A DNA stretch of 64,000 nt from Eledone cirrhosa (Eukaryota): assembly GCA_964016885.1 (NCBI GenBank), contig OZ024742.1, forward strand, positions 273,482,001 to 273,546,000, written 5' to 3'. The notes under the pieces are model-generated. The model was not told where the DNA came from. It saw nothing but the letters and a program-made list of their open reading frames with translations, and searched no databases. Both the position numbers and the translations under genes were made by a program. Position 1 is the first letter of the stretch. Every line of letters begins with the position of its first letter. Positions 22,141 to 42,923 of this stretch are shown here, one piece after another.

Positions 22141-23072
22141 ATAGTAGAATAATCGAGTATCGAAAAATCGGCGCACGAGTTCACGATAAACAAAATTCGA
22201 AATGAGCGGCAGAGGGCTCAATAATTCAGATAAATCAGAGCTATAACTATCGTTAAAATACCGTCACACATAGAACAAGTCTATAATCAACCATACGACC
22301 GAAAAATTGCGATCTGGAAGATTCGGGACACTCAGATAAAAAAATCAATAAATCAATAAATCAAATGAATGTAAAAAGCATACCCGGACCCGCTAGAAAG
22401 ATGGTAAATCTAGCTTCTTGGGTTTCTGTAAATCCTTAAACTGCCCTCTATCAGCTCACATAAAAATATATAAGACTTCTAGATGCCAGCGGACGGGAAT
22501 TTACTTCCTCAACGAGCCTTTGTCCGAACGAATGAAAGGCATAACCCAGGCTAAATACGCACATGGAATTCAGCAAGGGAGATAACCTCTATATCCGCAA
22601 AAAATATTCAGGAAAATGTGGAAATACACATATCGAATAAGAGTGCTCAATAGACATGTTAAAATAAACAGGAGCTATTCATCATTTAATAGAATCGACA
22701 AAAAATGAACAATAAAATTAACTGGTCAATAGCTAGGTCTAGAGCTAAATATAGTTGAATAATCGAGTATCGAAAAATCGGCGCACGAGTTCACGATAAA
22801 CAAAATTCGAAATGAGCGGCAGAGGGCTCAATAATTCAGATAAATCAGAGCTATAACTATCGTTAAAATACCGTCACACATAGAACAAGTCTATAATCAA
22901 CCATACGACCGAAAAATTGCGATCTGGAAGATTCGGGACACTCAGATAAAGAATCAATAAATCAATAAATCAAATGAATGTAAAAAGCATACCCGGACCC
23001 GCTAGAAAGATGGTAAATCTAGCTTCTTGGGTTTCTGTAAATCCTTAAACTGCCCTCTATCAGCTCACATAA
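22141..23072 (-). mobile_element. Non-coding retrozyme-like partial tandem (repeats 22141-22463 and 22751-23072; 610-bp period)
   Basis: Near-identical direct repeats, (TA)n flanks, large hammerhead at 22382-22517, no ORF. Confidence 0.72.
22382..22517 (-). ncRNA. Large type I hammerhead with UUGAGGA (U3:G8) core
   Basis: GCTCG-TTGAGGA-A-GTAAAT(T)CC...GGATTTAC-A-GAAA-CCC..GCTAGA..TCTAGC-GGG-TC-CGGGT. Confidence 0.65.
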
Positions 23073-23292
23073 TATATATATAGTACTTTTATATATATAC
23101 TTTTTCCTATTTCCCACACTACTACCCTAAGTATTGACCACTGTGGTGCGTTATGGTCCATCTGGTTCCTTACCACAATTCCTTTGTTTTATATATATAT
23201 ATATATATATATGTGTGTGTGTGTGTGTGTGTGTGTGTGTGTGTGTGTGTGTGTGTGTGTATATATACATTATATATACACACTTATATATA

Positions 23293-25216
23293 TATATTAA
23301 TAAGAGGAATTCCAGCTTTGTCTGATTTACTCGTTTTATTTACAATCCTTTAAAATTTATAATGGTATTATAATGAAATAGTATGATAGAATATTAAATG
23401 TTAAGTGTTAATTGAACAGGTACTTTCATGCTTTCGCAATCTTAAGGTTCATAATGTGTGGTGACAGTCAAGTTTGCAATTTTCAACTGTAATGAGATGG
23501 GTAAATTTTGTACCTTATATACAGTGAAAAGTGGCTCCAGAATGCTAAATCTTGCAAACTGTATTTCGACCAATCGGTGTGTAGTTTCACTGAATTACTA
23601 AAGCTGATTGGTTTAAGCGTCACTGTTGGTTGAGCATGTCTAACGACCACTAATTGATCCTATCCAAAGCATCAAGTGTTTTGCTATTTTTAGAAGTGAT
23701 GAAAATAGCATTTTCTAGTAATCATCACCAACATCACTTTTATTATTATTATTATTGTTGTTTTTGTTTTTGTTAGTAGTCGTAGTCGACATGGTCGTAG
23801 TCATAGTCATAGTAGAAGTAATACCCCTAAGCATTATTATTGTTCATTTAGCTTGGCTTTGAATTTATCAATAAAATTCTTTTCTTTGATTTTTCTCTTG
23901 ATTTCATTTGGGCTGTGTAATTTGTAGAATGGGAATATTATAAATATTCCCTGACCCCATGTTGTTAGGTGGTTACTTAGAGGTATCTGACGGACATTTG
24001 GGTCTTTGATTTGCTGGCGCTGTACCGTGCACGTTCTGATAGTGCATTTTCAGTTTGTCGACATATAGTTCTTCACAATTCAGGCATTTAATGCAATAAA
24101 TTAGATTTCTGCTTTTGCGGTTCTTATTTGCATTCGGGAATATTTTTTCCAGTTTTTGTGTTCATATATTTACCGGTGTGTATGGATTGACATGTGCCAC
24201 ATCGCCTATCATTGCATTTAGATACAGTGAATGATTGGTCTTTGTTGTTAAGGTCAAACTTTGTTTTTGTTAGTAATTGCAATGATAGTCGATGCGGCAC
24301 ATGTCAATCCATACACGCCGGTCAATATATGAGAACCAACACTGGAAAAATATTCCCAAATGCAAATATGAACTGCAAAAGCAGAAATCTAATTTACTGC
24401 ATTAAATGCCCGAATTGTGAAGAACTATATGTCGGTCAAACTGGAAATGCACTATCAGAACGTGCACGGGTACACCGTCAGAAAATCAGAGACCCAAATG
24501 TCCGTCAAATACCCCTAAGTAACCACCTAGCAACATGTGGTCAGGGAATATTTATAATATTCCCATTCTACAAATTACACAGCCCAAGTGAAATCAAGAG
24601 AAAATAAAAGAAAATAATATTATTTATGAATTCAAACCCAAGCTAAATGAACAATAATAATGCTTAGGGGTCTTACTTCTACTATGACTATGACTATGAC
24701 TACGACCATGTCGACTACGACCACTAACAACAACAACAATAATAATAATAATAATAATAATAGAAGTGATGTTGATGGTGATGATTACTAGAAAATGCTA
24801 TTTTCATCATTTCTAAAAATAGCAAAACAATTGATGCTTTAGATAGGATCAATTAGTGGTCGTTAGACACGCTCAACCAACCGTGACGCCTAAACCAATC
24901 AGCTTTAGTAATTCAGTGAAACTACACACCGATTGGTCGAAATACAGTTTGCAAGATTTAGCATTCTGGAGCCACTTTTCATCACTGTATATAAGGTACA
25001 AAATTTACCCATCACATTACAGTTGAAAATTGCAAACTTGACTGTCACCACACATTATGAACCTGAAGATTGCGAAAGCATGAAATAACTTGTTCAATTA
25101 ACACTTAACATTTAATATTCTATCATACTATTTCATTATAATACCATTATAAATTTTAAAGGATCGTAAATAAAACGAGTAAATCAGACAAAGTTGGAAT
25201 TCCTCTTATTAATATA
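23293..25216. mobile_element. ~1.9-kb head-to-head palindrome of a Neptune-like PLE 3' end (arms 23293-24216 and 24278-25216)
   Basis: ORF 24194..24607: CNDSRCGTC..NMNCKSRNLIYCIKCPNCEELYVGQTG..ERARVHRQ. The arms are reverse complements; the spacer continues the minus-strand ORF (LLTKTKF). Confidence 0.93.
25058..25096 (+). ncRNA. Minimal hammerhead in the pLTR (mirror copy at 23413-23451 on minus)
   Basis: TGAAC-CTGAAGA-T-TGC-gaaa-GCA-T-GAAA-TAAC-TT-GTTCA; the mirror copy keeps palindromic GTAC in stem III but has a damaged core. Confidence 0.75.
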
Positions 25217-25252
25217 ATCTTCTATACACAATCATACACACCCGTGTATATT

Positions 25253-25350
25253 TCTCTCTCTCTCTCTCTCTCTCTCTATATATATATATATATATATATA
25301 TATATATATATATATATATATATATATATATATATATATATATATATATA
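25253..25350. repeat. (CT)n(TA)n microsatellite
   Basis: Direct reading. Confidence 0.97.
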
Positions 25351-40915: not shown

Positions 40916-41019
40916 GCGTACTATTTTACCTGGCAACTGTTATGATAGCACCAATCCATGGGACTTACCGTTAACAAATTAAAGGAAGTCGTATGTAAGT
41001 TTTGTGTACTAAAATAATA

Positions 41020-41167
41020 CTCTCTCTCTCTCTCTCTCTCTCTCTCTCTCTCTCTCTCTCTCTCTCTCTCTCTCTCTCTCTCTCCCTCTCTCTCTCTCTC
41101 TCTCTCTCTCACTCACTTTCTCTCTCTCGCTCTCTCTCTCTCTCTCTCTATATATATATATATATAT
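41020..41167. repeat. (CT)n(TA)n microsatellite
   Basis: Direct reading. Confidence 0.97.
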
Positions 41168-41968
41168 AAAGACTATTTGAGTTTATAACTCTCTCTATAT
41201 AATATATATATATAAATATATATATATAAATATATATATATATATAATATAGAGAGAGTTATAAACTCAAATAGTCTTTTACAATTAAATAGCTCAAAGA
41301 AAGGAATATTTCTGAGCTGTGTAATACAAATGAATATATGATAGAGATAAACACTGATACAAGTATAAATGTGTTTGCATTGCAAATGACCAAGTCAGCT
41401 AGATTGAAAAATACTAATTAAAATAATACGGTTTGCCTGTCTCGATTTAAAATAATAAATCACTAAAAACAAACCTATATTGGCAATAGCCGTGATACCT
41501 GGACGAATTTAAAATTTAAAATTTAAAATTTGTTTCGCAACAATTAAGTGAAAGTTCCCATTCCTGTGCTCTTCTGCAGGTATCCAGAAATTGGTAAGTT
41601 TCACTTCAAAATATTTAAGAAGACTGAGAGAAATGTGTTGTTGAAAGCACATGTGTCACAGCGCCTAGCACGTCCCATACTCGTGCCGCTAAAAATAGCA
41701 GCCGGTTTTATGGGACTAAAAATTAGCTCAACTCATGGAGCCGATAATATTATATATAGAGTTATAAACTCAAATAGTCTTTTAAAATTAAATAGCTCAA
41801 AGAAAGGAATATTTCTGAGCCGTGTAATACAAATGAATATATGATAAGGATAAACACTGATACAAGTATACATGTGTTCGCATTTCAATCTAGCTAACTT
41901 GGTCATTTGAGATGCGAACACATGTATACTTGTATCAGTGTTTATCCCTATCATATATTCATTTGTAT
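41168..41968 (-). mobile_element. Non-coding retrozyme-like partial tandem (503-bp period) with inverted end pieces
   Basis: 41258-41382 is repeated at 41761-41885; 41885-41968 is the reverse complement of ~41326-41408; 41168-41200 is the reverse complement of ~41248-41280; hammerhead at 41494-41584. Confidence 0.7.
41494..41584 (-). ncRNA. Type I hammerhead fold with CAGAAGA (U4-to-A) core and 8-bp stem I
   Basis: GATACCTG-CAGAAGA-GCACA...TG(T)TGC-GAAA-CAAATTT..AAATTCG-TC-CAGGTATC; GUC triplet. Confidence 0.78.
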
Positions 41969-42030
41969 ATATATACATATATATATATATATATATATAT
42001 ATATATATATATATATATATATATATATAT

Positions 42031-42923
42031 CATATTACGTAAGTTGGATGGATGATTTTGGTTTCATAGAAACCTATCGGACGTATTGCAAAGTATCGTT
42101 CGATATGTCCAGGTCAGTTGTCTAACCTGATTAGTTTTTTAATTGCTTTTGGTATAGTGTGGCTAGGTCAAGCTGTCTAAACGTATGTTATTACTCTAAG
42201 GCCTACCTTATTGAGTGCTTTGATGCTCATTCCCAATTGTAGATCGTTAGCTAAGCCACAGCCAAAGCTTCGATTTTACTAAGCTTCCACTTGTATTATT
42301 ATCTCCTAGTCTTAATGATTAACTAATTAATTTAATTAGACAATTCCAGTGATTGGTTAATTATTAAGGTTTGTTTAATAACGTCTAGACGAGAGCTTTC
42401 CTTTCGGAATGTAGAACGAAATTGATTTCCCTTGTTCACACTTTGAATTTACGCACCAAAAACCGGTGGTTACTTCTCTTGTTGCAAATAACACGTGACA
42501 GTGAAACACTGAGAGCTGCCAACGTTAGCAGTTCGACGTTACATTCCACACAGGCATGAGGTATAGAACGAAATTTCCTGTTGATGACGTGAATCCACTA
42601 TTCGATCATGGAACACCACAGGCTTACATATTACGTAAGTTGGATGGATGATTTTGGATTTCATAGAAACCTTTCGGACGTATTGCAAAATATCGGTCGA
42701 TATGTCCAGGTCAGTTGTCTAACCTGATTAGTTTTTTCGTTGTTTTTGGTATCGTATGGCGAGGTCTACGTGCCGCAATTTTCAATTTGACAAGCTGTCT
42801 AAACGTAAAACGTATGTTATTACTCTAACGCCTACGTTATAGAGTGTTTTGCGGCTAATTCCTAATTGTAGGTCGTTAGCTTGGCCACAGCCAAAGCTTC
42901 GATTTTACTAAGCTTCCACTTGT
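42031..42923 (+). mobile_element. Non-coding retrozyme-like partial tandem (repeats 42031-42294 and 42627-42923; 596-bp start-to-start)
   Basis: Direct repeats with indels, (TA)n on both sides, large hammerhead at 42577-42710. Confidence 0.72.
42577..42710 (+). ncRNA. Large type I hammerhead with UUGAUGA (U3:G8) core and long stems II and III
   Basis: CCTG-TTGATGA-C-GTGAATCCA...TGGA(T)TTCAT-A-GAAA-C..TCGGACG-TATT-gcaa-AATA-TCGGTCGATATG-TC-CAGG; the upstream repeat has better-paired TATCGGACG/CGTTCGATA. Confidence 0.72.

Follow-up and report, generated by a model that had tools for sequence, protein, structure and literature searches.

The window analysed here is a 64,000-nucleotide (nt) stretch of Eledone cirrhosa DNA (assembly GCA_964016885.1, contig OZ024742.1, positions 273,482,001 to 273,546,000, forward strand). 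It holds two large hammerhead ribozyme-like motifs, A and B, both with the core UUGANGA, in which U3 faces G8. An earlier note described them as unrelated in sequence and took their shared plan for convergence on a distinct structural subclass. The locus thus raises the question whether this plan arose twice or was inherited. As judged from their sequences, A and B share descent and did not converge. Positions are those of the window; hammerhead numbering and the labels type I, II and III follow the papers cited below and general usage.

Each motif lies in an insertion of ~1.5 units of a non-coding repeat with (TA)n runs on both sides (A, 22144-23070, minus strand; B, 42031-42922, plus strand). 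The predicted unit RNA of A, from site to site, has 609 nt (22387-22995, minus), and unit B has 597 nt (42116-42712, plus). Large type I hammerhead-like motifs in ~600-nt units, as proposed in the earlier note, were therefore confirmed for both. Its view that the two are unrelated in sequence was contradicted. Outside the ribozyme, units A and B gave a local alignment score of 111, compared with 55.4 ± 8.4 for shuffled sequences (0 of 300 as high), and for neither query did any of the 530 control tiles of the window reach this score (best controls 102 for A and 85 for B). In nhmmer searches, the outside part of A found B at E 3e-4 and the outside part of B found A at E 0.004, each as the only significant non-self match. 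The alignment was colinear and on the ribozyme strand. The stem II domains were also alike, with only 1 of 2000 shuffles giving an equally good global alignment. Control alignments of stem II with pieces C and D were equalled by 1545 (A/C), 1407 (B/C) and 770 (B/D) of 2000 shuffles; A/D was equalled by 40 of 2000, and the D piece in this case took in core letters.

The ends of the insertions also matched. Both 5′ ends fall at the stem II hairpin tip, and the 3′ ends lie at mutually aligned positions (n=2). Target microhomology can explain the 5′ ends, because the tip is TA-rich in A and in B. At the 3′ end of B the unit has neither a TATA nor an ATAT site, and this speaks for a defined 3′ end. 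Since the upstream repeats (A, 22754-23070, minus; B, 42031-42295, plus) begin at the stem II tip, they hold only the 3′ half of the motif but keep the whole 3′ arm of the hammerhead; in A, this copy has GAAA at 23035-23032 and GUC at 22998-22996 (minus). Colinear homology outside the ribozyme together with matching insertion ends points to common descent of A and B. The shared plan is then a family trait from one ancestor, and argues less strongly for a structural subclass than it would had it arisen twice.

Motif A is a complete type I hammerhead (22374-22521, minus strand) with three helices, of which II and III are closed and I is open. All the features that the earlier note ascribed to it were present. 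The core strand UUGAGGA (22506-22512; U3 = 22512, G8 = 22507) fits the pattern N3-UGANRA / GAAA / UH with a 3-8 pair, and differs from the C3-G8 consensus. Stem I is closed by G22513-C22386 and can be drawn as 3 base pairs (bp), a 4-nt bulge and 6 bp, or as 5 bp straight. The stem II domain of 79 nt (22427-22505) consists of an 8-bp proximal helix, a variable middle and a tip hairpin of 8-10 bp (22476-22453). At its base, a single A after A9 opposes a single extra A before GAAA. The segment at 22387-22426 comprises GAAA, a long stem III (4 bp, a 5-nt bulge and 6 bp) and the GUC at 22389-22387; the predicted cut lies between 22387 and 22386. The repeat period at the ribozyme is 609 nt and the duplicated parts are 97% alike. 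Insertion A has no ATG-initiated open reading frame (ORF) of 40 or more amino acids (aa).

A generic hammerhead descriptor run on the window matched motif A only. An A-like motif occurred in 0 of 60 dinucleotide shuffles of the window, both at thresholds derived from A and at a looser set. The constrained hammerhead fold of A was 2.1 kcal/mol above the minimum free energy (MFE), and the circular fold of unit A (22387-22996) reached −147.1, compared with −127.7 ± 5.3 for shuffles (n=30). No Rfam hammerhead family was among the 110 matches of the window, nor was one found on a 221-base stretch of A or on motif B. Since a small motif at 28094 (minus strand) does give HH9 (E 0.19), the long stem II and U3 probably cause the Rfam models to miss A. 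A candidate 5-bp pseudoknot joins the 5′ flank of stem I (22526-22522) to an internal loop of stem II (22494-22490). Both partners of one of its pairs vary in the family, the changes being unlinkable, and two listed variants alone break pairs; no counterpart was evident in B. That A and B are competent as monomers is a prediction from stem III length only.

Motif B (42560-42724, plus strand) partly followed the description in the earlier note. The core UUGAUGA (42581-42587; U3 = 42581, G8 = 42586; seen in a single copy), the C.A opposition at stem II, the stem II domain of 78 nt (42588-42665) with a tip hairpin resembling that of A, the long stem III (with GAAA and GUC, 42666-42712) and the period of 597 nt all stood. 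The GUC site and the G-C closing pair exclude each other, because the sole partner available to G42580 (2.1) is C42712, and GUC uses this same nucleotide as its C. The GUC (42710-42712) also carries the motif 2 nt beyond the end at 42710 given before. B is thus one nucleotide short at the site, with the same letters in both tandem copies, and neither copy provides an unpaired residue 17 followed by paired 1.1-2.1. The best register dispenses with residue 17 (−35.0 kcal/mol) and has a stem I of 3 bp, a 6-nt bulge and 10 bp with two small bulges. C17 can be kept only with a G inserted ahead of U3 and a proximal stem I of 2 bp (−32.5 kcal/mol). The MFE structure is a different fold (−42.2 kcal/mol).

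Descriptor scores at the level of B were reached in 5 of 60 shuffles and equalled by 2 of 83 metagenome pattern matches. What makes B convincing is therefore mainly that it is homologous to A and has a stem I of 3+10 bp. The insertion contains one internal ATG ORF of 41 aa; three others overlap its ends, mostly through microsatellites. Between the tandem copies of B, substitutions numbered 3 in 96 positions of the ribozyme part and 17 in 168 outside (p=0.051), a difference too weak to establish constraint on the ribozyme part. The circular fold of unit B was −139.8, compared with −128.7 ± 7.3 for shuffles (n=30). The window copy of B is most likely a defective copy. The absent nucleotide sits exactly at the predicted cleavage/ligation junction (42710-42713 and 42113-42116, plus), and its absence is common to both copies. 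We speculate that the gap could be the scar of a circle joined minus one base and then copied 1.5 times.

Whether U3 is a trait of the family or of one copy was examined in sequencing data. Of 15 runs listed for 22144-23070, 4 were compared with A over 22330-22620 (291 bases) at 80% likeness, providing 196 contigs from run X1, 1 contig from X4, 2 contigs from X6 and 677 reads from X13. Variants are given for 40 of 52 rows. The contigs of X4 (depth 13.6) and X6 (2.3-6.2) carry labels of other organisms and were not taken as proof of conservation across species. The family of A is dispersed and multi-copy, with many haplotypes and a summed word depth in X1 of up to 78,000; word depths, here and below, are not copy numbers.

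None of the 40 listed variant rows falls at U3 (22512). Position 8 was A in 13 of 76 reads of X13 and in 50 of 5,216 of the word depth in X1. At 22483 the reads of more diverged subfamilies part from the alignment, and three further cores came from their loose ends. UUGAUAA, with U3-A8, came from 59 X13 reads (agreement 0.56; median 25 letters, so that not all reach the core). UUGACAA, also U3-A8, was found in one contig each of X4 and X6, and UUGAAGA, a U3.G8 core with A7, in 5 contigs of X1. All four loose-end consensuses that reach the core have U3, three of them with the compensating A8. U3 is family-wide in the family of A, and position 8 is A or G. The earlier note had made the U3:G8 wobble the mark of the group; because sister subfamilies of A have U3-A8, the lineage is U3-R8 (R, purine) and not a wobble class. 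It had also named a C3 consensus as the finding that would reveal independent C-to-T decay, and no such consensus was seen among the listed variants, so U3 is unlikely to be the decay of one copy; this result covers A. Variants shared with the X4 and X6 contigs reached a word depth of 8,800-23,700 in X1, compared with ~5,200 at the core of A's subfamily, which suggests that the A8 side is at least as large as the G8 side.

Listed variation spared the helices. Of 74 paired positions 5 were variable, compared with 17 of the 74 others (p=0.01; the test used the 24 variable positions as far as 22534), and in 4 of these 5 a pair is kept or gained. In the core and the proximal helices 1 of 46 positions varied, compared with 35 of 203 elsewhere (p=0.005, listed variants). 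An ADAR-type origin of G8, by A-to-G change on the RNA strand, was rejected, since X13 showed no asymmetry (17 A/G and 18 U/C variant places).

We consider it likely that A and B are diverged subfamilies of one non-coding, hammerhead-bearing lineage of retrozymes that lack long terminal repeats (non-LTR retrozymes), hosted by an animal genome with many Penelope-like elements (PLEs). The hammerhead of the lineage is an enlarged type I motif with U3 and, at position 8, a purine, which is A in some subfamilies and G both in that of A and in the single copy of B. At the level of sequence, this reading is supported by the anatomy, the homology of A and B, the multi-copy family, the helix-sparing variation, the matching ends and the PLE remnants nearby. 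Both insertions are head-to-tail non-coding repeats with a type I hammerhead per unit, as retrozymes are defined. With only 1.5 units, each has one complete motif and would fall short of the rule of two complete motifs for an "active" retrozyme.

In the proposed cycle, transcription would run through the 1.5-unit insertion, the transcript would be cleaved at GUC, and the ~600-nt unit thus released would probably be circularised. The reverse transcriptase (RT)/GIY-YIG endonuclease of a PLE would then copy the unit RNA into a (TA)n target, going round it more than once. Cleavage, circles and the PLE partner are proposed by analogy with the literature on retrozymes and PLEs: retrozyme circles have been demonstrated in other animals (PMC7229834), microsatellite targets and partial tandems have been described for PLEs (PMC8557442), and a model of PLE hammerheads with copying of more than a unit has been put forward (PMC4209133). 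No PLE partner with the same 3′ end was found among 78 (TA)n flanks. A pattern scan for further members gave 0 in viral contigs. In metagenomes it gave 83 stretches, 8 of them with complete minimal stems I and III and none near the score of A; none of these matched unit A or B by nhmmer (best E 0.64). One metagenome stretch, looked at singly, was judged a chance match.

Several results weigh against this reading. A and B are distantly homologous, and their similarity is AT-biased (nhmmer bias 18-20; a control tile reached 102, compared with 111); a phased piece stood for B in the scoring. Taken alone, the distal part of stem II was marginal (67 of 2000 shuffles), and stem III was not alike (944 of 2000). 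No PLE within the window shares sequence with A or B. Residue 17 is missing in both copies of B, and the family sampling covered A only. The variant totals leave one unlisted A>G row that could be C3; it has less support than the listed rows, and its likelier place is 22515, where an X1 loose-end consensus has A>G (stem I, U.G to C-G). The p value for core conservation would rise from 0.005 to 0.18 if three unlisted rows fell in the core. Among the core mutants of a type III hammerhead described in PMC9901934, single and double changes all had low activity except a C-G swap, which argues against an efficient U3.G8 core. In Xenopus, 1 of 9 predicted retrozyme dimers cleaved in vitro (10.64898/2026.07.22.740005).

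The weakness of such mutants, the greater or equal abundance of U3-A8 forms and the base missing from the site of B would all fit a reading in which the family is the same but its U3.G8 form is dead or negligible, an offshoot of a U3-A8 master amplified without cleavage of its own. This we find unlikely. G8 occurs with intact helices in up to 63 of 76 X13 reads and in X1 contigs of depth 307-977, the helices are spared by listed variation, G8 is present in both A and B despite their wide divergence, and a Saccoglossus PLE hammerhead is listed with U3.G8. On the preferred reading the G8 form is most likely a core that is slower yet usable, at roughly even odds. A different doubt concerns mobility: A and B may have come loose from an autonomous PLE family, as its terminal repeats or untranslated ends, and not be separately mobile retrozymes. 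Partial tandems and (TA)n targets are PLE traits, the Xenopus retrozymes resemble pseudo-LTRs (10.64898/2026.07.22.740005), and there are only 1.5 units and no long arrays. The (TA)n bounds on both sides of each insertion, the fixed-size repeat-internal-repeat layout free of coding remnants and the lack of a matching PLE in the window speak against it. An autonomous PLE would have an RT and GIY-YIG frame between its terminal repeats, and the internal segments here are ~290-330 nt and non-coding. We regard this origin as improbable.

The convergence of two unrelated elements on a U3:G8 subclass has become very improbable. The shared plan is real, the stem III sequences are unlike and overall identity is low, but the colinear similarity outside the ribozyme and the matching insertion ends largely refute it; sister subfamilies have A8, and no third independent example came from the viral-contig and metagenome scans. 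Least credible of all is that both copies were canonical C3-G8 hammerheads in which C decayed to T independently. The core of B is known from a single copy and the unlisted A>G row cannot be placed, but all four loose-end core consensuses have U3, three with the compensating A8, and no listed variant lies at 22512, so that decay is refuted for A unless the unlisted row is large.

Within the preferred reading of one retrozyme lineage, a bolder version can be stated, which we think doubtful. In a high-copy lineage, the U3.G8 core would be active and stabilised by the enlarged stem II and an interaction that joins stem I to stem II; the insertion unit, starting at the stem II tip, would be fixed, and 1.5 copies would release an exact unit through a permuted fold. 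Peripheral contacts are thought to rescue natural core variants (PMC3088659). In folding calculations, the single core strand paired with the upstream half as a permuted hammerhead was 5.2 kcal/mol above the MFE; the type I form was 4.8 kcal/mol above it in a comparable context and 4.1 when circular. Permuted pairing first, and pairing with the downstream half afterwards, would let 1.5 copies release the exact unit. If this version were true, large U3-R8 hammerheads would be invisible to Rfam models and short-loop descriptors, and a sizeable hidden population of ribozymes could exist in cephalopod genomes.

The lineage offers a natural series of U3-A8 and U3.G8 cores on one scaffold, amplified in one genome. 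With this series one can ask how far peripheral structure relaxes the 3-8 pair, which mutagenesis found critical. The results also suggest that abundant retrozyme families escape surveys built on CUGANGA and a short stem II. That two insertions so far diverged have matching ends is relevant to how PLE enzymes initiate and terminate on hammerhead RNAs.

The window consists of animal DNA that is AT-rich and dense in (TA)n runs and retroelement remnants. A Pfam family was found for two of seven retroelement ORF pieces (one GIY-YIG, one endonuclease with RT), and the remaining five had none. The GIY-YIG match lies at 26452-26946. An ORF at 13837 has homologs at 30-49% identity, one of which bears the name GIY-YIG endonuclease. 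Named matches of the ORF of a long interspersed nuclear element (LINE) at 60713 were octopods (Argonauta hians, 58% over 77% of the query; Octopus bimaculoides, 78% over 10%). Several PLE-like fragments, tandem and inverted, lie at 10424-22120, with a 143-nt duplication at 21600-21882. At least four related LINE copies (endonuclease and RT), 70-80% alike, cluster in both orientations at 44700-62700. Long inverted repeats and a 142-nt palindrome adjoin microsatellites (23293-25216, 2275-4548 and 41827-41968).

Other hammerheads are present in the window. A partial tandem of ~595 nt between (TA)n runs (1020-2110, minus) carries U3-A8 hammerheads UUGAUAA at 1180 and 1775, both complete, with a 59-nt stem II and palindromic stem III, 1.1 kcal/mol above the MFE. 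This element is a candidate active retrozyme of the dimer type; it had no nhmmer match to A or B. Two units of ~527 nt at 43152-44243 (minus) include a C3-G8 hammerhead at 43932 with a 55-nt stem II and palindromic stem III; part of the core is lost in the second copy. This hammerhead also has an N.A opposition at the stem II base, so the earlier note's use of that opposition as a trait of a U3 subclass did not hold. Small PLE-type hammerheads with palindromic stem III adjoin remnants of PLE reading frames at 28094 (minus), 28851 (plus) and 7383 (plus).

Like metazoan non-LTR retrozymes (PMC7229834; 10.64898/2026.07.22.740005), A and B are non-coding AT-rich head-to-tail units with one type I hammerhead each, no primer-binding site (PBS) or polypurine tract (PPT) seen, and co-occurring PLEs; their units fall within the reported range of 51-972 bp. 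Unlike them, A and B have a U3-R8 core, a stem II domain of ~80 nt in place of the canonical 4-bp helix II, a stem III of at least 10 bp in place of 1-2 bp, and 1.5 units in (TA)n in place of arrays; circles have been demonstrated for the retrozymes and are predicted for A and B. Plant LTR retrozymes share the repeat-internal-repeat layout, and their circles have 600-1000 nt. They have a whole type III hammerhead in each LTR, a PBS, a PPT and 4-bp target duplications, unlike A and B, whose topology is type I and whose upstream repeats hold only the 3′ half.

The PLE hammerheads of PMC4209133 share with A and B an extra base between 9 and 10.1 and a helix II of 7-8 bp, and with A a pair of the G10.1-C11.1 type. 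The same paper reports ~1,300 PLE-type motifs with U3-A8 in S. mansoni, a single row with U3.G8 for a Saccoglossus PLE hammerhead (supplement file 2), and large helix III in fungal and protist PLE hammerheads. Metazoan PLE motifs have short loops II and no helix III or a palindromic one (dimer type), unlike A and B. A and B differ from PLE motifs further in the long capped stem II, the long non-palindromic stem III, the lack of an attached PLE frame and the extra A before GAAA. U3-A8 also occurs naturally through 3-8 exchange in the core variants of PMC3088659, which also take in saltern variants that have 2a/2b insertions; PMC7151607 cites one of these as having U3 and G8. The letters before the core of B can be read as an insertion next to U3, as in the saltern variants; a two-base insertion register of that kind gives B no closing pair. 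The variants of PMC3088659 are microbial or phage sequences, and the saltern variant that was tested needs very high Mg2+.

U3-A8, one example of U3.G8, an extra base before stem II and 600-nt units are thus already in print. The same traits joined with a stem II domain of ~80 nt, an additional A ahead of GAAA and a long stem III were not found in the part of the literature covered, nor was a described U3.G8 class or a cephalopod retrozyme; the word "ribozyme" was absent from the main text of the O. vulgaris repeat paper (PMC13282606). Because this coverage is partial, the claim of novelty is limited. Set beside these systems, A and B are neither a new class of ribozyme nor a new class of mobile element. 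Their sequences point to a single lineage, a retrozyme-like repeat that carries large type I hammerheads with U3-R8, intact in A and probably defective in B.

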